A stretch of DNA of 64,000 nucleotides from an uncultured Gemmatimonadota bacterium (GTDB taxonomy: Bacteria > JAAXHH01): assembly GCA_951812955.1 (NCBI GenBank), contig OX638340.1:384001-448000 (forward strand), read 5' to 3'. Positions 35,334-45,112 of the stretch are shown here, piece after piece (position 1 is the stretch's first letter; each line of letters begins with the position of its first letter). The position numbers were made by a program, and so were the translations under genes. A model generated the notes under the pieces. It was given only the letters and a program-made list of their open reading frames with translations. It ran no database searches and was not told where the DNA came from.

Positions 35334-35610
35334 CCCGGACGTGATCTACCGTTCACGAAACCGGCTGTGATTTCGTCGTGTAGATAACCCAACTTGTGCT
35401 TCGTAAAATATGCCGAAGACGCCTGTTGTCAAGTTAAAACTCCAGATAAACCCCTTGACGAAACGTACCGTTTCCGTTATATGTTCTAGGCTTTGCGCCA
35501 GCGGTCGGATCCGCTGTCCGTTCGGCGTTTAGCCAGCACGATACACAGCGGTTTAAGGCGGTTTCTAACCGGCGAATTACTCGACGAAACTTCGCAGGAG
35601 GTCCGGGTCG

Positions 35611-36282
35611 ATGGCAAGAACGAGACGGCGCATCAGCCGTCGTGAAATGAAGGAAGACCGATTCATTCTCTGGCTGTACGAGTTGAGCAGCGAGATCGAC
35701 AAGCACTGGAAAACGCTCACGGCGGCTGCCGTCGCTGTGGTCGTCTGCGTGGCCGGCTGGTATTACTGGACAAACAAGCAGACCGATGACATAGTCGAGG
35801 CGGGACGGATACTCGCGCCGGGGCAGACGGCGATGCAGAATAATCGCTATGAAGACGCCATTCCCATGTTCGAGCGGGTCGTGAACGAATTCGGCGGGAC
35901 CGCTCTTGCCCTCGAGGCCACGATCGAACTGGCCAACGCTTGTTTCCAAGCCGGCGACGTTGAGAAGGCACGCACCTACTATCAAAAATACCTCGACGAA
36001 TACGGCAGTCAGAACGCGTATTTCTGGATGGCCGCACGCTCCGGCCTGGCCGCCTGTGACGAAGAGGAAGAGAAGTACGAGGAAGCGGCCAACCAGTATC
36101 TCGCCCTGGTGGACGAAGATCCGGACAGCTATCTCGCCCCCGGTTTTCTCCTGGATGCCGCTCGATGTTTCAGCGCCGCTGAACAGAAGGACCAGGCAAG
36201 GGCCCTGTACGACCGTGTGGTTGATACCTACGAATCCACGCCTTACGCCCGGGAAGCCCGGATCGCGTTGACCGCGCTCTAA
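35611..36282 (+). CDS. Membrane-anchored TPR-like protein (YfgM/YbgF-like)
   Basis: 223 aa. One N-terminal TM segment, then TPR-like helical repeats. Confidence 0.6.
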   Translation: MARTRRRISRREMKEDRFILWLYELSSEIDKHWKTLTAAAVAVVVCVAGWYYWTNKQTDDIVEAGRILAPGQTAMQNNRYEDAIPMFERVVNEFGGTALALEATIELANACFQAGDVEKARTYYQKYLDEYGSQNAYFWMAARSGLAACDEEEEKYEEAANQYLALVDEDPDSYLAPGFLLDAARCFSAAEQKDQARALYDRVVDTYESTPYAREARIALTAL

Positions 36283-36385
36283 TCGACCGCATTCCAGTTG
36301 ACTGCGTCCTAGTTGCCCGCGTTCCAGCGGAGATCGCGTGGTCCGAACGCACCCCTCGCGTTGACTGCGCGCTAACGGAGATCGC

Positions 36386-37525
36386 GTGAAGGTTACCAAC
36401 TTCGCCCCCGGCCCCACACCGGTTCCGGATCGAGTCGTCCGAAAGATGTCGGAACCGGTCCTCACCCACCGATCCAGTGAATTCAGCGGCCTGCTGAGAC
36501 AAGTCACGTCGGGACTGCAGCACGTTTTCCAGACAGAGAACGATGTGCTCGTACTTACGGCCTCCGGCAGCGGCGCCATGGAAGCCGCCGTCGTCAACCT
36601 GCTGTCGCCGGGAGACCGCGTACTGGCGATCAGCGGAGGCAAATTCGGTAGTAGATGGGTCGAACTGTGCGAGACCTTCGGCCTGGACGCCCTGACCTTA
36701 GACGTGGCGTGGGGAAAGGCCGCCGATCCGGATGAAATCGACCGGATCCTGGCTGAGCGGGGACCCTTCGAGGCCGTGCTGGCCACCCATAGCGAAACAT
36801 CGACCGGCGTGCTGCACGACATCGAGGCCCTGGGGAATGTCGTTCGCGGTCACGGCTGCTATTTTGTCGTGGACGCAATCAGTGGACTCGGGGCCAACGA
36901 GCTGAAGACGGACGAATGGCACGTCGACGTGGCCCTGACGGGATCGCAGAAAGCGCTCATGGTCCCGCCCGGCCTCGCCTTTATCAGCGTCAGCGAACGG
37001 GCATGGAAGGGTATAGAGAGAAACACTCTCCCGTCCTATTATCTCAATCTGAAACGGGCCAGAGATTCCTTCTCTAAGGGGCTCACGCCCTATACGCCCG
37101 CCGTTTCGCTGCTCATGGGACTGGCCGAGTCACTGAGGATGATGAAGGAACTCGGACTGGAAGATATCTACCGGATTCACGAAAGAAACGCCCTGGTGAC
37201 CCGTGCGGGCGTCGCTGCGCTCGGGCTGAGGGTTTTCGCCCAGCGCCCTTCCAACGTACTGACTTCCGTATCCATGCCGCCCGGCATCGACGGCTCCGAG
37301 CTGCTGAAGACGATCAAACAGGATTGCGGCGTGACTATCGCCAACGGAATGGAGCACTTCAGGGGCAAATACATCCGCATCGCCCACCTGGGCTACGACA
37401 TCGCCCCTTCGGACATGCTGGTTGCGCTATCGGCACTCGAGCACGGCCTGAGCCGCCACGGGTACGCGTTCGAATCCGGCGCGGGTATCGCCGCGGCACA
37501 GCGGGTGATCCTCGAGACGGGGTAA
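36386..37525 (+). CDS. Class V aminotransferase (serine-pyruvate / phosphoserine aminotransferase-like)
   Basis: 379 aa. FAPGPTPVP start. PLP-lysine region VDVALTGSQKALMVPPGL. Confidence 0.8.
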   Translation: MKVTNFAPGPTPVPDRVVRKMSEPVLTHRSSEFSGLLRQVTSGLQHVFQTENDVLVLTASGSGAMEAAVVNLLSPGDRVLAISGGKFGSRWVELCETFGLDALTLDVAWGKAADPDEIDRILAERGPFEAVLATHSETSTGVLHDIEALGNVVRGHGCYFVVDAISGLGANELKTDEWHVDVALTGSQKALMVPPGLAFISVSERAWKGIERNTLPSYYLNLKRARDSFSKGLTPYTPAVSLLMGLAESLRMMKELGLEDIYRIHERNALVTRAGVAALGLRVFAQRPSNVLTSVSMPPGIDGSELLKTIKQDCGVTIANGMEHFRGKYIRIAHLGYDIAPSDMLVALSALEHGLSRHGYAFESGAGIAAAQRVILETG

Positions 37526-37628: not shown

Positions 37629-39155
37629 TTACTTTTTCAGTTCGCGGATCTCGATATTGCCGTCGCTCGTCTCCAGCCAGATCCGGGTGCCGCCGCCGTT
37701 AAGCGCATACGTAGCGCTGATCTCTCCTTCTTCCGCGTCTTCCTCGTAGCGCTCCGCTTCCAGATCGGATCGGATCTTGTATCGCAGTGAATTTCTGACG
37801 TTACTCCGGTTGGAATGGATCACCTTCTTCTTCACTTCGACAGATTTCCTCTGTTTACTTGATAACTCCTGCCGGGCTTCCTGTAATACCTGCTGGGCTT
37901 CCTGCAATTCCCGTTGCATCTCTCGCAGGAACCGTTGCGCCTCTTCGGCTGACATCTGTAACGCCTGGTTCGCGCTCTGCGTCAGCTTTTCAATGATCTC
38001 GTTCAACTTCTCCTCGTCGATCTCCGTATCCGACAGATCGAGGTCGATCGTTGGAATCTCGGGTAATTCGGGCAGGTCGGCAGTTGTGACTACACGTGCG
38101 CGAACGGTTTTGCCGGAGGGATCAACAAACACCCCGAATCCCTCGTCCACGTGGATCCGCGCTTCGATGGTCGCCTTCGCTCCCGGATCCACGTAGAGTA
38201 CAATGTCGCCGCCGGCCGAAATAAGCGAACTGCCCTCTGAACCCTCCGGCGTGATTTCGGCCAGGACGTCGCCGCCTGCGGTCCTCGCGTCGATCGTCCC
38301 CGTTACGTTCAACAGCTCCAATTCGCCACCGGCGGTTTTCGCCTGGACGGCACCCTTCGCGTTTTGCAATTCGATATCTCCGCCGGCTGTCGTGATACGG
38401 GCGTTCGCCGAAAGCTCGTCGATCTCTATATCGCCTCCGGACGTCCTGATACGGGCCTCGCCACCTACAAACTCAATGGTGATGTCTCCGCCGGAAGTCT
38501 GGGCTTCCAGCGAATTGCCGACGCGGCCGATCCGGATATCTCCGCCGGAAGTCTGGACATCCAGGTCGGACGATGCCTCTTCGACCCGGATATCACCCCC
38601 GGACGTCTGCAGATGAACGTCGCCACCAATAGTGCCAACGTGGATGTCGCCTCCCGATGTGGTCAACTCCACTTCACCGCCGATATCCCGAAGCGTTACG
38701 TCGCCGCCCGACGTATGACTCTTCACGTCGCCCTTCAGATCGCCGACGACCTCGATATCGCCACCACCGGTGCGCAGGTCCAGGTCGAACTCCTCGGGCA
38801 GATCGATCTTGAAACGCAGCCCCTGTCTTCTGTTGAATGACCGTCTGGGAAAACGCGGGTCGTAATCGACACGCAGTATGCCCCCGTCGTAGCGTATTCT
38901 GAGGTCACTTTCTATGTTTGGCGGGATGCCCTGGACGGTCACGACCGCTTCATCCTTCCTCCACGTGGAGATGGTGATGTCGCCCGCCCGGGTGTTCAGA
39001 TCGAGCCGCTCGCCCCTTTCCACCTGGAAGGTCTCAGACCGGCTGCTGCCGGCGGCCCTGTTCTGATCCTCCGTGAGTGCCAGGGCTTGTTGCGCCAGGG
39101 CTTGCTGCGAAAAAATCAAAATGCCGAATGTGCAGACCAGAAACCTCATAATCAC
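37629..39155 (-). CDS. Secreted DUF4097-repeat (putative adhesin / beta-helix) protein with C-terminal coiled coil
   Basis: Signal peptide. More than 12 tandem T(S/A)GGDI repeats. Last gene of the ECF sigma operon. Confidence 0.75.
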   Translation of the reverse strand: MIMRFLVCTFGILIFSQQALAQQALALTEDQNRAAGSSRSETFQVERGERLDLNTRAGDITISTWRKDEAVVTVQGIPPNIESDLRIRYDGGILRVDYDPRFPRRSFNRRQGLRFKIDLPEEFDLDLRTGGGDIEVVGDLKGDVKSHTSGGDVTLRDIGGEVELTTSGGDIHVGTIGGDVHLQTSGGDIRVEEASSDLDVQTSGGDIRIGRVGNSLEAQTSGGDITIEFVGGEARIRTSGGDIEIDELSANARITTAGGDIELQNAKGAVQAKTAGGELELLNVTGTIDARTAGGDVLAEITPEGSEGSSLISAGGDIVLYVDPGAKATIEARIHVDEGFGVFVDPSGKTVRARVVTTADLPELPEIPTIDLDLSDTEIDEEKLNEIIEKLTQSANQALQMSAEEAQRFLREMQRELQEAQQVLQEARQELSSKQRKSVEVKKKVIHSNRSNVRNSLRYKIRSDLEAERYEEDAEEGEISATYALNGGGTRIWLETSDGNIEIRELKK

Positions 39156-39179
39156 TACTCCTTTGTCGGCCGCGTTCCG

Positions 39180-40175
39180 TTAAGGTGCGGGCAGGTTGCT
39201 AAGCACGGTCCTCGCCCTGGTGCGGATATAGGCGTTTTCGTCGGAAACCATCCGGGCCCTTAGTACCCTTTCCAGGTCTTCGTCGATCGAGGTCGGCACC
39301 TGCTCCTGCAGCCGGTTGATCGCGTTGATTCTGAGGGCCGGATTCTCGTCGAAGACCAGTGTGTGGATCATGGCGTCTCTGATCCCCTCGTCAAAAGGAT
39401 ACCGGGAGAGGGCGTTGAACGCCTCGCCCCTGACCCCGGCATTCGAGTCCGTTTTCAAGGCGGTGACGAGGGCATCCTTGATCTCATGCTCCGAATGCAG
39501 GATTTCGGAATCGCTCACGGCGTTCACCGCCCGCAGCCGGACGCCGGGATTCTGTTCATTAAGTACGGCAAAGGTGAGTACACGTTGTATGCCGGGATCG
39601 TCGAGCGTTCCTCTGATCTGCACGGGCCGGACGGCTTCGAACTGGAATTCCAACATGCCATCGGGGGCGCCGGAATCCACGAACCGAACGTTTGAAATGG
39701 CCACGTCGTCATTGGTCAACAGGTCCGTCTGATCCATGCCCGGCGTCGCGAATCCAATGGAACGGTCTCCCTGGAAGGCCAGGTAGTAACCGGCAACCAG
39801 GCCGATGAACAACAGCAGTGCTCCCCCGAGGACGGAGCGGTAGGAAGGAAAGGTGTTTATCGTAACCCTTTGCAAGCCGTCTACTATGCGACCTGCCCAC
39901 CCGCTTGGGATGTGGAGACCCGGGCGGCCGAGTGTCACGTTGGACCAAAATCGGTTTCGAGCTTCATTCAGGTCTGCCGCACCAGGCCTGGCAGGGGCGG
40001 CTTCCCCCATGACCAGTCTGAATTCATCCAGACGGGCGCGGTACGCCCGGCATTGATCACATGATTCGAGATGGACGTCCAACCGCCGCTGATCTGCATC
40101 GGACAATTCACCGTATTGGGAGAGTTCCAGCCATTCTTCCCATTTCGTGTGAGACCGGCTCCTGTCTTCTTTCAT
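39180..40175 (-). CDS. Anti-sigma factor: N-terminal zinc-finger (HxxxCxxC) domain, TM segment, C-terminal HEAT repeats
   Basis: LDVHLESCDQCRAYRARL ZAS-like motif. Hydrophobic segment. HEAT-like repeats in the C-half. Its ATG overlaps the sigma-factor stop (ATGA); the internal ATG at 40175 was chosen. Confidence 0.7.
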   Translation of the reverse strand: MKEDRSRSHTKWEEWLELSQYGELSDADQRRLDVHLESCDQCRAYRARLDEFRLVMGEAAPARPGAADLNEARNRFWSNVTLGRPGLHIPSGWAGRIVDGLQRVTINTFPSYRSVLGGALLLFIGLVAGYYLAFQGDRSIGFATPGMDQTDLLTNDDVAISNVRFVDSGAPDGMLEFQFEAVRPVQIRGTLDDPGIQRVLTFAVLNEQNPGVRLRAVNAVSDSEILHSEHEIKDALVTALKTDSNAGVRGEAFNALSRYPFDEGIRDAMIHTLVFDENPALRINAINRLQEQVPTSIDEDLERVLRARMVSDENAYIRTRARTVLSNLPAP

Positions 40176-40831
40176 TTTCGTATGTCCTCGAGTTGACTGC
40201 GCAGTCTTCGGGTGGCATCGAAAAGGTATTTCTTTACCGTGCCTTCGGCACATTCCATGATTCCCGCTATCTCCCTCAGTTTGAATCCTTCGTGGTGGCG
40301 CAACACAAACACCGTTCGCAGACGGGGAGAAAGTGTACCGACGGCGGACCGGATCCGCGAAGCGATTTCGCTGTTGATGACTGCCGCGTCCGGCCGTTCG
40401 GGGGTAACGGGCGTAACACCGTAAGTGACCGTAGCCTGGTTTTCGTCGAACTTGTCTTCGATAGGGATGAACCGCCTGGTCCGGTTCCGCGACCGATGCG
40501 TGAGGCAGACATTGGTGACGATCCGGTACAGGTAGGTGGAAAACCGGCTGCGGAATTCGAAATCGGGCAGTGCCTTGAATACACGCATGAAGACTTCCTG
40601 GTATACATCCTTTGCGTCGTCCAGGTCGCCCACGAAGGACACGGCCATGGACAGCACTTTCTCGTCGTATCTGTATACGAGTTCTTCCAGGGCCCGCATG
40701 TCGCCTCCCCGGGCCTTGAGAATCAGCCTGCGCTCCTCCAGGTCCGTGCGATTTCCTGCCGAATCGTTATCCATGTGCTCTTCCCGATCATCCGGTGCGA
40801 TTCGGCCGTCGAGTTTACGGGCAGTTTCCAC
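40172..40831 (-). CDS. ECF-subfamily RNA polymerase sigma factor (sigma-24 type)
   Basis: Region 2 (LVYRYDEKVLSMAVSFVGDLDDAKDVYQEVFMRVFKAL) and region 4 (LSPRLRTVFVLRHHEGFKLREIAGIM). Confidence 0.85.
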   Translation of the reverse strand: METARKLDGRIAPDDREEHMDNDSAGNRTDLEERRLILKARGGDMRALEELVYRYDEKVLSMAVSFVGDLDDAKDVYQEVFMRVFKALPDFEFRSRFSTYLYRIVTNVCLTHRSRNRTRRFIPIEDKFDENQATVTYGVTPVTPERPDAAVINSEIASRIRSAVGTLSPRLRTVFVLRHHEGFKLREIAGIMECAEGTVKKYLFDATRRLRSQLEDIRK

Positions 40832-41508
40832 GTGGTTACCTGGTCACGTCGTGGTGCATGTGCGTGTAACTAAACTTCGAGAAACTTGCTGTCTCCGATC
40901 GGGCGCTTGGTGACCATGTGCGGGCACCTGATGATGACCTTTCTCGAGCCCTTGTGACTTTACGCTGGCGCGTGGCGCCTGGAATCCATATGCGGGATGC
41001 GGGCGCTTTATGTTCATGAGACCGTGTCTACATCGAATTGGTTGTGGACTAACGCGTTTTTTTAAAAGGAGACCGCGGGAGTATGCGGCGTATACACGAT
41101 CAACACGGTGCGCAATGCAGTCTTTAGGTGATTCAACGCACGGGAACGAGGAAAGTCGAGGGAATTACGGTTGAGGCATGTGGCGATGTGACGATACTGG
41201 CGTGTGGCGAGGTCTGTCCGGCGGACCGGATTCGAGTTCATGATCGTCAGTAAAGGCAGGAATGAGCTGGAAGGTGTTTGAAGGAGCGGGAAGGAGCTGG
41301 ACGAGCATATAACCAAAGGAATCAAAGACTTACGAATCCCAAGAAGGCAGGACGCCAGCGGCAGAGCAAGGATCTGCCGACTGGTCGGAATCGATCGACA
41401 TGATCGGAATCCGTTGTGTCAATAGCCGGAGGGTGGCCATTCAATCCGGTCGGTGGAACCGCACGAATTTTACGCAACCGGAAACAGGCCGCTCGATACG
41501 ACAGGCGT

Positions 41509-41703
41509 TCAGCCGTCCTTCGAGGTAGACGAACCTGACGTATTCTGATTCTCTTCGGCGGGCTCTTTCTTCTGTGCTTTCTTGAATTCGGTGATCCCCT
41601 GGCCCAATCCCTTGGCCAGTTCAGGGAGCTTCTTCGCGCCAAATAGGACCATGACGATTACAAGAATAATAATCAGTTCGGTCGTGCCGAAACTACCGAG
41701 CAT
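41509..41703 (-). CDS. tatA: Twin-arginine translocase subunit TatA/E
   Basis: 64 aa; [53 protein letters not shown]. Confidence 0.9.
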
Positions 41704-41922
41704 TTAAATCACCTCCTCAGAACGCAGGATACCTTTATTGCCCTGGTTTGTCAAGCGGCAATAAAAGGACTTCCATTCTGCCGCTTAGCTGCCAACGACC
41801 CGGCGCAGTCGCATGGGCATGCCGTTTAGAATACTTGCATAGAAGCAATTTGCGTGTTTACTTATTCCCTGACCACAAATTTTGAAGTCGCTGCCGGTTG
41901 ATTTTATACGTTCAAGGAGGAC

Positions 41923-42165
41923 ATGGTGACTGTACGCATTGTATACTGCGCTGATTGAAGCTATGAACAAGACGCCGCCGGGTTGGCGGTGAAATTACTT
42001 GAGTATTACAAACACGATATCGAGCAGTTGCAGCTTGTGCCTTCCGGGGGCGGCAGGTTCGAAGTCACCGTGGATGATTCGCTGATCTTCTCCAAACTGG
42101 GAACCGACCGGTTTCCCGAATACGGGGAGGTCAAGGACGCCATCGAGGCATCGATCGCGGGTTGA
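41923..42165 (+). CDS. SelW/Rdx-family selenoprotein (in-frame TGA = Sec at 41956-41958; CxxU motif)
   Basis: My translation across the TGA: MVTVRIVYCADUSYEQDAAGLAVKLLEYYKHDIEQLQLVPSGGGRFEVTVDDSLIFSKLGTDRFPEYGEVKDAIEASIAG. RBS caaggagga. The track shows only the C-terminal 60 aa (41983..42165). Confidence 0.7.
41973..41991 (+). promoter_or_regulatory. SECIS-like hairpin 15 nt downstream of the in-frame UGA
   Basis: CGCCGCC-GGGUU-GGCGGUG: 7-bp stem including one G-U pair, G/U-containing apical loop. Confidence 0.5.
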
Positions 42166-42273
42166 ACCGCAATCGACCGCCGCGGCGTCTATTAAGGATC
42201 CATAATCCAGGTCCGGACGCTTTTCCCGGCCCGGGCGCTTTTCCAGTCTATTGGTCTGAGGACAGAGGTTAGT

Positions 42274-42615
42274 ATGAATATCTACGTTGCGCTGGAAGAC
42301 GAGATCGCCGTGCTTCGCATCGAGGGCAGATTGTGGGAAGAAGGAGACAGCGTTGAGCTGGATCGGATGATCGACGATACCCTTGACCGGGGATGCACGC
42401 GGTTCGTTGCCGATTTGACCGGCGTGCCCATCATGAACAGTTCCGGGTTGGGTTCGCTGATCGCGGCCATGAAGAAAATACGTTCCAGGTCCGGGGAGAT
42501 GGTGCTCACCGGCGTCAACGACCGCCTGGATCAACTGTTCCGGATCACCCGGCTGTACACGGTCTTCAAGAAGTATGACGATGTGGACGCCGCCGTGGAA
42601 AACATGCATGCCTGA
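42274..42615 (+). CDS. STAS-domain anti-sigma-factor antagonist (SpoIIAA/RsbV-like)
   Basis: 113 aa; phosphorylatable Ser region DLTGVPIMNSSGLGSLIAA. Confidence 0.8.
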   Translation: MNIYVALEDEIAVLRIEGRLWEEGDSVELDRMIDDTLDRGCTRFVADLTGVPIMNSSGLGSLIAAMKKIRSRSGEMVLTGVNDRLDQLFRITRLYTVFKKYDDVDAAVENMHA

Positions 42616-45112
42616 CTACCAGCCCCTGGACCTCACGCCGAGTTGCAACGCGCCCCGAAGCATTTACGATTCCATAACGGATCCTCCGCTCGGATCACAG
42701 GAATTCTATGGTCTTCCCTTTCAAATCGGCGACGGCGCCGGAGATTCCGACTGTTTCGTCGGCTTCGGTGACCAGATCGGCTGCTCGTCCTCTCCCGCAG
42801 CGATTCCCGTCGAAAGTTCCGCCGTCAACGTGATCTTCGCCCACGCGGTGATCCGTTCGGAAATCGAGGCCGGCGGTCCGATCGCCCTTCCCGTGGCCAC
42901 TTACCGGTTCATCTGGGACGACGGGCATGACGAGTCCGTTACGATCCGCGAGCGGTTCGAGATCGGCTACATGCCGCTGCCCTGGGGACAATACCCCTTC
43001 CTGTGCGTGCCCGATCAGAAGCCGGTTATTTACAACCGGTCCGGCGGCGATTGGAACGATGCCGGCCGCCGGCAGACCGAAGCCGAGCAGGGTTGGCCAC
43101 AGGGGTACTACCTCTGGGCATGGCGCAATCCCCGGCCCGACCAGGATATCCGTTCCATCGAAATCACGCCGCAGGGCCCACCTTTCGTCGTGGCCGCCAT
43201 CACGCTCGGCCATGTCGACGAAGATCCAATTTGCCGGTGGGCTGCCAGGGACGTCCAGGTCGAACTGAAAAACCCGAAGCGCGCGGAGAAACCCTTCGAC
43301 CTCGAAGTCGAAGTCGACCGCGGCTACGCCACATACGCCTATCCACTGCCCGGGCAGGTCGACCAGGCCTTCATGAACGACACCCACCGCGGATGGGGCC
43401 AGGCGGACAGCAACCGCTCCAGTCCCGCCCATGTTGGCGTGGCTGGCACGCCGTCGGCCACGGTGACCGTAAAACAGGACGGGAAGGCGGTCGGGTCGGC
43501 TAACTGGGGCGAGCTGGAAGCGAAAGAGGTAGTCGATACGCCCGCGGTTCGATTCGAGGTCATCGACACGGGACGAAACTGGGTACACACCACGGTCCTG
43601 GACGACGAGACCGGCCACCCCGTGCCCTGCCGTGTGCATTTTCGATCTGCCAAGGGTGTGCCGTACGCGCCCCACGGCCACCACGCCCACGTGAATTCGA
43701 ACCTGGATACCTGGCACGTGGACGTGGGCGGCGACGTCAGGCTGGGACAGATGTCCTATGCGTACATCGACGGCAGGTGCCAGGGCTGGCTGCCCCGGGG
43801 CGAGGTGCACGTGGACGTGGCCCGGGGATTCGAATATGAGCCGATTCGCGAGTGCGTCACCATCGATCCCGGGCAACGCGAGCTTACCCTCAGGCTGAAG
43901 CGGTGGACCGATCTGAACGCGGAACGGTATTTCAGCGGCGACACCCACGTGCATTTCCTCTCCACCCAGGGCGCTCACCTGGAGGCCCAGGGGGAAGACC
44001 TGAACGTGGTCAATCTCCTGCTGTCCCAATGGGGAGGCCTTTTCACGAACACGGAGGAGTTCACCGGATCGGCGAGCGCGTCGCCGGACGGAGATACGAT
44101 CGTTTACGCCTCGCAGGAAAACCGGCAGCACATCCTGGGCCACCTTTCGCTCCTCGGCCTCAAAGAACCGGTCATGCCCTGGTGTTCGGACGGACCCGGT
44201 GAAGCGGAACTGGGAGGCAACCTGGAAACGACCCTGTCGTACTGGGCCGACGCCTGCCATGCGCAGGGCGGGACGGTCGTGATTCCCCATATCCCCAATC
44301 CAAACTGCGAACCGGCGGTTCTCATCGCCACGGACCGCGCCGACGCCGTGGAGATGCTGGTGCACAGCGAGTACAATCACCTCGAATACTACCGGTACCT
44401 GAACTGCGGCTACCGTCTGCCGCTCACGGGCGGGACGGACAAGATGTCCAGCGACGTGCCCGTGGGGATCTACCGGACCTATGCCTACATCCCGCCGGAC
44501 GAGCCCTTTACCTACGACAACTGGTGCAAGGCGCTGCGCGGCGGCAACACCTTCCTGAGCGCGGGACCCATCATCCGGTTCACGGTGAACGGCCGGCCGA
44601 TCGGCGATACGGTAAATCTACCCGGCAACGGCGGGACGGTGGAGATCGAGGCGTCGGCGGATTCGACCCTGCCGATCCATACCCTGGAAATCGTGCAGCA
44701 GGGCAAGGTCGTCGCCGCTACGGAAGAGATGAAAGGCGTCCGCCGGTTATCGCTCAAGACCTCCCTGAAGATTGAAAGCCACACGTGGCTGGCGGCCCGG
44801 TGCGCCGGACCGAACTACTCCAGCGTACCGCACCACGACGGCTGGCGCCGCGGCATCATGGCCCATACGTCGCCGGTATACGTGGCCTGCGGCGGCCCCT
44901 ACTGGCTGTTCGACCTGGAAAACGCCCAGTACATGCTGAGCCTGATCGAAGGGGGCCTTTCCTACATCAAGCGTCGAAGTTGGCAACACAAGCCGGAAAC
45001 GACCACCCACCACCACGGCGGCGACGACCACGAAGCCTTTCTCGAAGCCCCATACCTGCAGGCGCGGGAAGCCATCCACCGCCGCATGCACGAACTGAAC
45101 ATCCCGCATTGA
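42608..45112 (+). CDS. Large PHP-domain (CehA/McbA-like) metallohydrolase with an N-terminal domain of unknown function
   Basis: FSGDTHVHF, VIPHIPNP and LPLTGGTDKMS resemble PHP-domain metal-binding motifs. Start (ATG 42608) overlaps the STAS 3' end by 8 nt. Confidence 0.55.
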   Translation: MPDYQPLDLTPSCNAPRSIYDSITDPPLGSQEFYGLPFQIGDGAGDSDCFVGFGDQIGCSSSPAAIPVESSAVNVIFAHAVIRSEIEAGGPIALPVATYRFIWDDGHDESVTIRERFEIGYMPLPWGQYPFLCVPDQKPVIYNRSGGDWNDAGRRQTEAEQGWPQGYYLWAWRNPRPDQDIRSIEITPQGPPFVVAAITLGHVDEDPICRWAARDVQVELKNPKRAEKPFDLEVEVDRGYATYAYPLPGQVDQAFMNDTHRGWGQADSNRSSPAHVGVAGTPSATVTVKQDGKAVGSANWGELEAKEVVDTPAVRFEVIDTGRNWVHTTVLDDETGHPVPCRVHFRSAKGVPYAPHGHHAHVNSNLDTWHVDVGGDVRLGQMSYAYIDGRCQGWLPRGEVHVDVARGFEYEPIRECVTIDPGQRELTLRLKRWTDLNAERYFSGDTHVHFLSTQGAHLEAQGEDLNVVNLLLSQWGGLFTNTEEFTGSASASPDGDTIVYASQENRQHILGHLSLLGLKEPVMPWCSDGPGEAELGGNLETTLSYWADACHAQGGTVVIPHIPNPNCEPAVLIATDRADAVEMLVHSEYNHLEYYRYLNCGYRLPLTGGTDKMSSDVPVGIYRTYAYIPPDEPFTYDNWCKALRGGNTFLSAGPIIRFTVNGRPIGDTVNLPGNGGTVEIEASADSTLPIHTLEIVQQGKVVAATEEMKGVRRLSLKTSLKIESHTWLAARCAGPNYSSVPHHDGWRRGIMAHTSPVYVACGGPYWLFDLENAQYMLSLIEGGLSYIKRRSWQHKPETTTHHHGGDDHEAFLEAPYLQAREAIHRRMHELNIPH

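Follow-up and report, generated by a model that had tools for sequence, protein, structure and literature searches.

The list of open reading frames made for the 64-kb window, that is, for the whole stretch of DNA analysed here, holds only a 60-aa fragment beginning at TTG 41983 for a plus-strand frame that continues further in the 5′ direction. This had been pointed out in the preliminary description, in which the frame was extended to ATG 41923 and the product was proposed to be a selenoprotein. Translation of 41923-42165 (+) gives MVTVRIVYCAD*SYEQDAAGLAVKLLEYYKHDIEQLQLVPSGGGRFEVTVDDSLIFSKLGTDRFPEYGEVKDAIEASIAG*, where the internal stop is the TGA at 41956-41958. The question raised by the locus is whether this triplet precedes a short gene as an ordinary stop or encodes selenocysteine (Sec) within a longer one. 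The analyses described below make it very probable that the frame is a real gene for a SelW-like (Rdx-family), Sec-encoding selenoprotein, shortened by gene finders because its TGA codes for selenocysteine.

The coding sequence is placed at 41926..42165 (+), giving a product of 79 aa from a conserved GTG to the stop TGA at 42163-42165; if ATG 41923 served as the start, the product would have 80 aa. A Shine-Dalgarno sequence is present, as had been noted, but not 7 nt upstream of the ATG: its core AGGAGG (41915..41920, +) is separated from ATG 41923 by 2 nt and from GTG 41926 by 5 nt. Among the relatives, cgttcaaggagga is kept and the sequence further 5′ of it is not, with conservation dropping sharply 5′ of the ribosome-binding site. 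At the position of 41926 all 23 relatives compared have a start codon (GTG in 21/23, ATG or TTG in the others), but at that of 41923 only 12/23 have ATG, the remainder having ACG, AGG, CTG or ATC. Because of the spacing of AGGAGG and the retention of a start codon in all relatives, the real start is probably GTG 41926 rather than ATG 41923; the extension of the frame stands, with this change of its first codon.

The in-frame TGA is located, as first read, in the redox motif C-A-D-U (TGC GCT GAT TGA, 41947..41958, +). With U read as C, the product covers positions 1-73 of the 74 in the Pfam Rdx model PF10262, with a score of 74.4 bits (cut-off 22.6), and reaches 64.1 bits with the NCBIfam model TIGR02174 (CXXU_selWTH), whose cut-off is 34.2. 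The proposed membership in the Rdx/SelW family is hereby borne out, and only with read-through of the TGA does the match extend over its full length. NCBI keeps dedicated models for SelW-like CxxU proteins; the score against the narrower equivalog NF041051 (SelTWH_Campy) is 79.2 against a cut-off of 88, which places the protein outside that sub-model. The 60-aa fragment also passes the Pfam threshold by itself, with 48.6 bits. This would suit the rival view that the true gene is an ORF of 58-60 aa located after the TGA, starting at TTG 41983 or GTG 41989, with the 11 upstream codons as an untranslated leader. However, the fragment covers model positions 20-73 only and lacks positions 1-19, which comprise the first β-strand and the CxxC/U active site, while the 20 residues 5′ of the fragment add 26 bits to the Rdx match and complete the domain.

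The best PDB matches found with phmmer are bacterial proteins from structural genomics named “selenoprotein W-related”: Atu0228 (2fa8, E = 7e-10), 2obk, 3dex, 2p0g, 2oka and 2ojl, with E-values from 7e-10 to 1e-4; mouse SelW ranks next. In the alignments with 2fa8, 2obk and 3dex YCADU stands opposite YCTQC, so that the TGA (41956..41958, +), the presumed Sec codon, falls on the second Cys of CxxC. Homologs with Cys exactly at the U position, one of the checks proposed at the outset, thus exist among the solved bacterial structures, where six were counted. These Cys-containing proteins share the family and the position of the motif with the window protein, at an identity of about 30%, and differ from it in their CxxC (CTQC), in longer C-terminal tails (~103-108 aa) and in having no need of a recoding element. 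For the fold, an AlphaFold model of the homolog P0002, used in place of the window protein and 79% identical to it in a BLASTP local alignment, was considered (mean pLDDT 78.9). Its elements follow the order E-H-E-E-E-H, with the CxxC/U motif between a strand at 10-17 and a helix at 23-36, i.e. at the junction of strand 1 and helix 1. Foldseek searches with this model returned the SelW-related crystal structures (TM 0.77-0.80, E ~1e-7), then mouse SelW, then thioredoxins. The predicted fold of the product is accordingly the thioredoxin-like β1-α1-β2-β3-β4-α2. Mouse SelW (2npb) likewise has CxxU at the β1/α1 junction of this arrangement, although the relationship is distant (phmmer E = 0.11, Foldseek TM 0.62).

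A protein search identified 23 database relatives. In 20 of them the product comprises 45-60 aa and begins after the TGA, including one named by NCBI “SelT/SelW/SelH family protein [Gemmatimonadetes bacterium]”; the other three are full length. A scan of species-representative genomes gave 23 loci, from Niallia sp. Krafla_26 and from 22 metagenome-assembled genomes (MAGs) labelled Gemmatimonadota, Gemmatimonadetes, Latescibacterota or just “bacterium”. Together with three metagenome contigs these make 26 relatives, or 27 sequences with the window. The MAG loci are 83-88% identical to the window at the nucleotide level and therefore represent distinct species, not duplicates; the exceptions are L002 (OY762445.1), with 96%, and L003, with 95%. 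OY762445.1 has a length of 3.9 Mb, and its ~96% identity to the window extends over 20 kb.

The TGA occupies the position of the presumed Sec codon in 26/26 relatives (27/27 sequences including the window), across a range of protein identity from 44%, the value for Niallia, to 98%. All 25 close relatives have C-A-D-U in their protein sequence, and Niallia has C-T-M-U. The last of these, L023 (NZ_CP130945.1, 584234-604449), is a cultured Bacillaceae isolate, in which the hairpin of the SelW-like gene stands in the same register as that of the window. Such conservation decides the case of a pseudogene, in which a SelW-like gene would have been disabled by a mutation of Cys to stop. A single base change, from TGC or TGT to TGA, would have been enough, but the same TGA recurs in every relative across the whole range of identity, and the sequence on both sides of it bears the signs of purifying selection, with no other lesions. 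Judged by conservation, this explanation is effectively refuted, and its probability appears negligible.

In codons 3-11, upstream of the TGA, the third position varies in nine of nine codons, and the first and the second in three of nine each. On account of this codon-position periodicity, the frame 5′ of the TGA is considered to be translated, and it is kept in all relatives, contrary to one of the outcomes that would have spoken against a selenoprotein. The orthologs present a TGA with coding constraint on both sides, as expected of a bacterial selenoprotein gene. The same data bear on the short gene starting after the TGA. Gene callers did produce such products for 20 of the 23 database relatives, yet the annotated starts disagree among themselves. 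TTG 41983 is replaced by CTG in 8/23 genomes, lies inside the loop of a hairpin and is not preceded by a Shine-Dalgarno sequence, which also speaks against a domain starting at 41983. The upstream periodicity and the kept AGGAGG at the right distance from GTG 41926 point in the same direction, and a short gene behind an untranslated leader is considered extremely unlikely.

Downstream of the TGA the preliminary description had reported a hairpin with a 7-bp stem and a GGGUU loop, and this was found at 41973..41991 (+) as CGCCGCC-GGGUU-GGCGGUG. The stem includes one G-U pair, the 5-nt loop occupies 41980-41984, and the invariant core consists of 6 bp (41974-41979 with 41985-41990). The spacer between the UGA and the hairpin is 14 nt, the loop begins 21 nt after the UGA, and the free energy of the hairpin alone is -12.1 kcal/mol. 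According to a 2026 review (PMC13188914), the consensus for bacterial SECIS elements comprises a loop of 3-9 nt on a stem of 4-16 bp, G in the first two loop positions, a distance of 16-37 nt between the UGA and the loop, and ΔG ≤ -7.5 kcal/mol; the window hairpin agrees with the consensus in every respect. Like the SECIS of the E. coli fdhF type (bSECIS), it is situated within the ORF right after the UGA, with a small, G-first apical loop at the 16-37 nt spacing, whereas its 6-7-bp perfect stem is simple, has no bulged U and matches no Rfam model. Eukaryotic SECIS elements differ from it in their location in the 3′ UTR, in structure and in decoding factors.

Taken by itself, the hairpin is weak evidence for recoding. 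The fold energy of the 61-nt segment is not exceptional (z = -1.65), and among the 1,828 TGA trinucleotides of the window 5.7% precede some consensus hairpin and 0.9% one that is equally strong. When all these sites were scanned for a read-through ORF combined with a consensus hairpin, 23 candidates were obtained, of which only the SelW-like gene has a redox motif; the other 22 resemble off-frame GC-rich ORFs. An Rfam search of 41850-42250 at E ≤ 10 gave no SECIS family, only a spurious match of a miRNA model on the minus strand across the stop codon of the gene. Rfam covers the heterogeneous bacterial SECIS elements poorly, and for that reason the negative outcome counts for little. The region of the stop codon and the intergenic spacer, in turn, lacks conservation, and its fold is no more stable than that of shuffled sequence (z = -0.45).

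It could also be argued that the hairpin is a by-product of the conserved D-A-A-G-L-A residues written in GC-rich codons, or a terminator of the minus strand, and not a functional SECIS. Homologs with Cys show (R)A(A/G)W(L/M)A at the place of the hairpin too, and a consensus scan marks 41989-41975 of the minus strand as resembling a terminator. Moreover, covariation in the stem is nearly absent: four of the seven pairs never vary, and only the outermost one exchanges C-G, U-A and A-U, being unpaired in 6 of 18 distinct sequences. As the stem is too invariant to offer support from covariation, the synonymous positions were relied on. The four-fold degenerate codons of the hairpin are GCC in 26/26, GCC in 25/25, GGG in 24/26 and GCG in 26/26 sequences, while equivalent codons elsewhere in the gene reach third-position entropies of up to 1.8 bits (Mann-Whitney p = 0.007); Ala10, for example, is GCT in 12 and GCC in 14 sequences, and Pro40, Gly42 and Gly43 each use all four codons. 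The stem codons are retained even in three relatives with AT-rich codon usage, and the loop holds GGG, a minor Gly codon among the genes of the window (16%).

The sequence of Niallia offers a further argument, since its residues differ (K-A-A-R-V-A-E) and yet a stem, CCGCC/GGCGG, is preserved, here closed by the loop CGUGU. Between the UGA and the loop there are exactly 21 nt in 27/27 sequences, Niallia included. There is also no minus-strand gene directly to the right that would need a terminator at this place. The synonymous constraint is the persuasive evidence, drawn from sequence comparison, and shows that the hairpin is constrained at the RNA level; a mere by-product of codon choice or a terminator is regarded as very unlikely. 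The combination of the 26 additional Rdx bits, the TGA retained in every relative and the constraint on synonymous sites in the stem goes far beyond chance.

Selenocysteine insertion would require dedicated machinery, and its components were sought near the gene. ARAGORN detected no tRNA-Sec in the 64-kb window or in the 23 flanking loci; the single tRNA of the window is a tRNA-Arg, according to both ARAGORN and a whole-window Rfam search at gathering thresholds, and the 23 loci hold no tRNA. Neither the Pfam scans of 42 window ORFs nor the NCBIfam scans of six proteins (five window ORFs and the product with U changed to C) revealed SelA, SelB or SelD, and in tblastn searches of the window and all loci with the E. 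coli SelA, SelB and SelD (NC_000913.3) only the GTPase domain of IF-2 was matched. These searches extended over the 64-kb window, less than 2% of a genome of ~3.9 Mb, and over up to 20 kb per related genome; because less than 2% of the genome was covered, missing selA, selB, selD and tRNA-Sec genes are uninformative. A literature search on the use of Sec in Latescibacterota or Gemmatimonadota gave nothing relevant.

The missing machinery might nevertheless be taken to favour a standard amino acid at the UGA, namely Trp, Gly or Cys, inserted through reassignment of the code or through near-cognate suppression helped by the hairpin. The three full-length database proteins in fact show W at the position of the UGA. 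This W is an artefact of gene calling: the underlying DNA has TGA, and the proteins in question (P0001-P0003, loci L026-L028) are ENA predictions from short contigs called with a code in which TGA is Trp. In P0001 the true TGA stop is translated as W as well, which adds a false C-terminal tail. In the window, the stops of 34 Pfam-supported genes are TGA in 18 cases, TAA in nine and TAG in seven, and the SelW-like gene itself ends in TGA. As TGA outnumbers the other stops of the window, its reassignment is excluded, and the standard code applies. The position of the UGA is, furthermore, that of the catalytic Cys of the family, where exchange between Sec and Cys is documented (PMC1088965), and the hairpin fits a consensus of the SelB type. 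Insertion of a standard amino acid is accordingly held to be very unlikely, and Sec remains the preferred reading of the codon.

Under selenocysteine decoding, translation would begin at GTG 41926 (or ATG 41923) and reach the UGA at 41956-41958, where the ribosome would insert Sec instead of terminating. The mRNA hairpin at 41973-41991 would present its G-rich apical loop 21 nt past the UGA, and, by analogy with known bacterial Sec decoding, the complex of SelB, GTP and Sec-tRNA(Sec) would bind this loop and deliver Sec at the UGA. Elongation would then run on to the true stop TGA at 42163-42165. In the finished protein the Cys9/Sec12 pair presumably cycles between the selenol/thiol and the selenenylsulfide forms, as in a thiol-dependent oxidoreductase acting on some physiological substrate; for CxxU SelW-like proteins, such a pair has been proposed to act as a redox centre that forms a selenenylsulfide (PMC1088965).

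Bacterial SelW-like selenoproteins are known from metagenomes of the Sargasso Sea and of GOS (PMC1088965, PMC2398784), and in 2005 the SelW-like CxxU proteins with a bacterial SECIS, represented by 48 genes, were the most abundant selenoprotein family of the Sargasso Sea data set (PMC1088965). The window gene corresponds to this group (PF10262/TIGR02174) in its single domain of about 80 aa with CxxU near the N-terminus, in the use of UGA for Sec followed by a stem-loop within the coding sequence with G in the apical loop, and in the routine mis-annotation as a shortened ORF. No essential difference was found; the particular features are the clade, which consists of MAGs labelled Gemmatimonadota or Latescibacterota, and the conserved setting of tatA on one side and selW, STAS and metallohydrolase on the other.

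The genes next to selW are tatA (41509-41703, -), a STAS anti-sigma-factor antagonist (42274-42615, +) and an 845-aa ORF of the CehA/McbA metallohydrolase type (42575-45112, +), in which residues 451-770 match NF038032 at 153.6 bits. The identities first given to these three neighbours were correct, but the neighbourhood is not unusual in any meaningful sense. The conserved order comprises, on the left, a TPP enzyme, a 462-aa protein of unknown family, DUF4097, a zf-HC2/HEAT anti-sigma factor, an ECF sigma factor and tatA (-), and on the right, on the plus strand, selW, the STAS antagonist, the 845-aa metallohydrolase and a BCCT transporter. By the count made here this order is held in 20/22 MAG species, and the pair selW-STAS in 22/22. 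L012 and L015 are without the ECF sigma, anti-sigma and DUF4097 genes; L019 is without the metallohydrolase and apparently also without the sigma, anti-sigma and DUF4097 genes.

The spacer between selW and STAS measures 108 nt in the window and only ~30-40 nt in several relatives, which makes co-transcription of the two genes plausible. Between 42208 and 42244 the spacer contains two tandem copies of a unit of ~18 nt, CCGGNCCGGRCGCTTTTCC. The unit is carried downstream of selW by L001, L002, L003 (three copies) and L005 (one copy), and is missing in L004 and L006-L011, where the spacer has the length of ~30-40 nt; its distribution resembles that of a small repeat in expansion. In the list, the 845-aa ORF shares 41 nt with the end of the STAS gene, and its N-terminal part of ~450 residues has no Pfam or NCBIfam match, in a setting of conserved synteny.

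Several features were recorded on the left side of tatA. The 462-aa ORF (35434-36822, -) matches nothing in Pfam or NCBIfam; with 52-90% identity among relatives, below the 91-99% of the flanking TPP enzyme, it is a fast-evolving protein. The region 37629-40831 (-) is a module of the ECF sigma factor, the anti-sigma factor (zf-HC2 and HEAT repeats) and the DUF4097 “toastrack” protein. As 82 nt are shared by the listed ORFs of the sigma and anti-sigma factors, the start of the anti-sigma gene probably lies further downstream than listed. No supported gene lies in the interval of ~680 nt (40832-41508) that separates tatA from the ECF sigma gene; its GC content is lower (0.54), and it gave nothing in Rfam. 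It is poorly conserved apart from two islands, ~40991-41067 and ~41131-41189, recognisable in several species, which could be regulatory sites or a small RNA.

No sign of a functional tie between the neighbourhood and the selenoprotein was seen in the window or the related MAG loci. It has been considered that selW, STAS and the metallohydrolase, beside the ECF sigma and anti-sigma genes, might form a unit in which the Sec-containing redox protein feeds an oxidative-stress signal into a partner-switching pathway; this is an improbable suggestion; if true, it would be the first time that a physiological role is defined for a SelW-like protein of bacteria.

The SelW-like gene is clear but biologically ordinary, and it is mis-annotated in public records. 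The knowledge of selenoproteins is unchanged by it, as the abundance of SelW-like CxxU selenoproteins in bacteria has been recognised since 2005. Its practical value concerns annotation: in 22/22 related species genomes and in the NCBI and ENA sets the gene is either shortened to 55-60 aa, with loss of the active site, or given a spurious Trp. The gene also adds a clean and deeply conserved example of a bacterial SECIS with a fixed 21-nt spacing, and Niallia sp. Krafla_26 provides a cultured organism in which Sec insertion into the SelW-like family is open to testing. For the bacteria themselves, whose isolate names hint at marine-invertebrate hosts, the finding implies Sec decoding in a clade of uncultured lineages labelled Gemmatimonadota or Latescibacterota.
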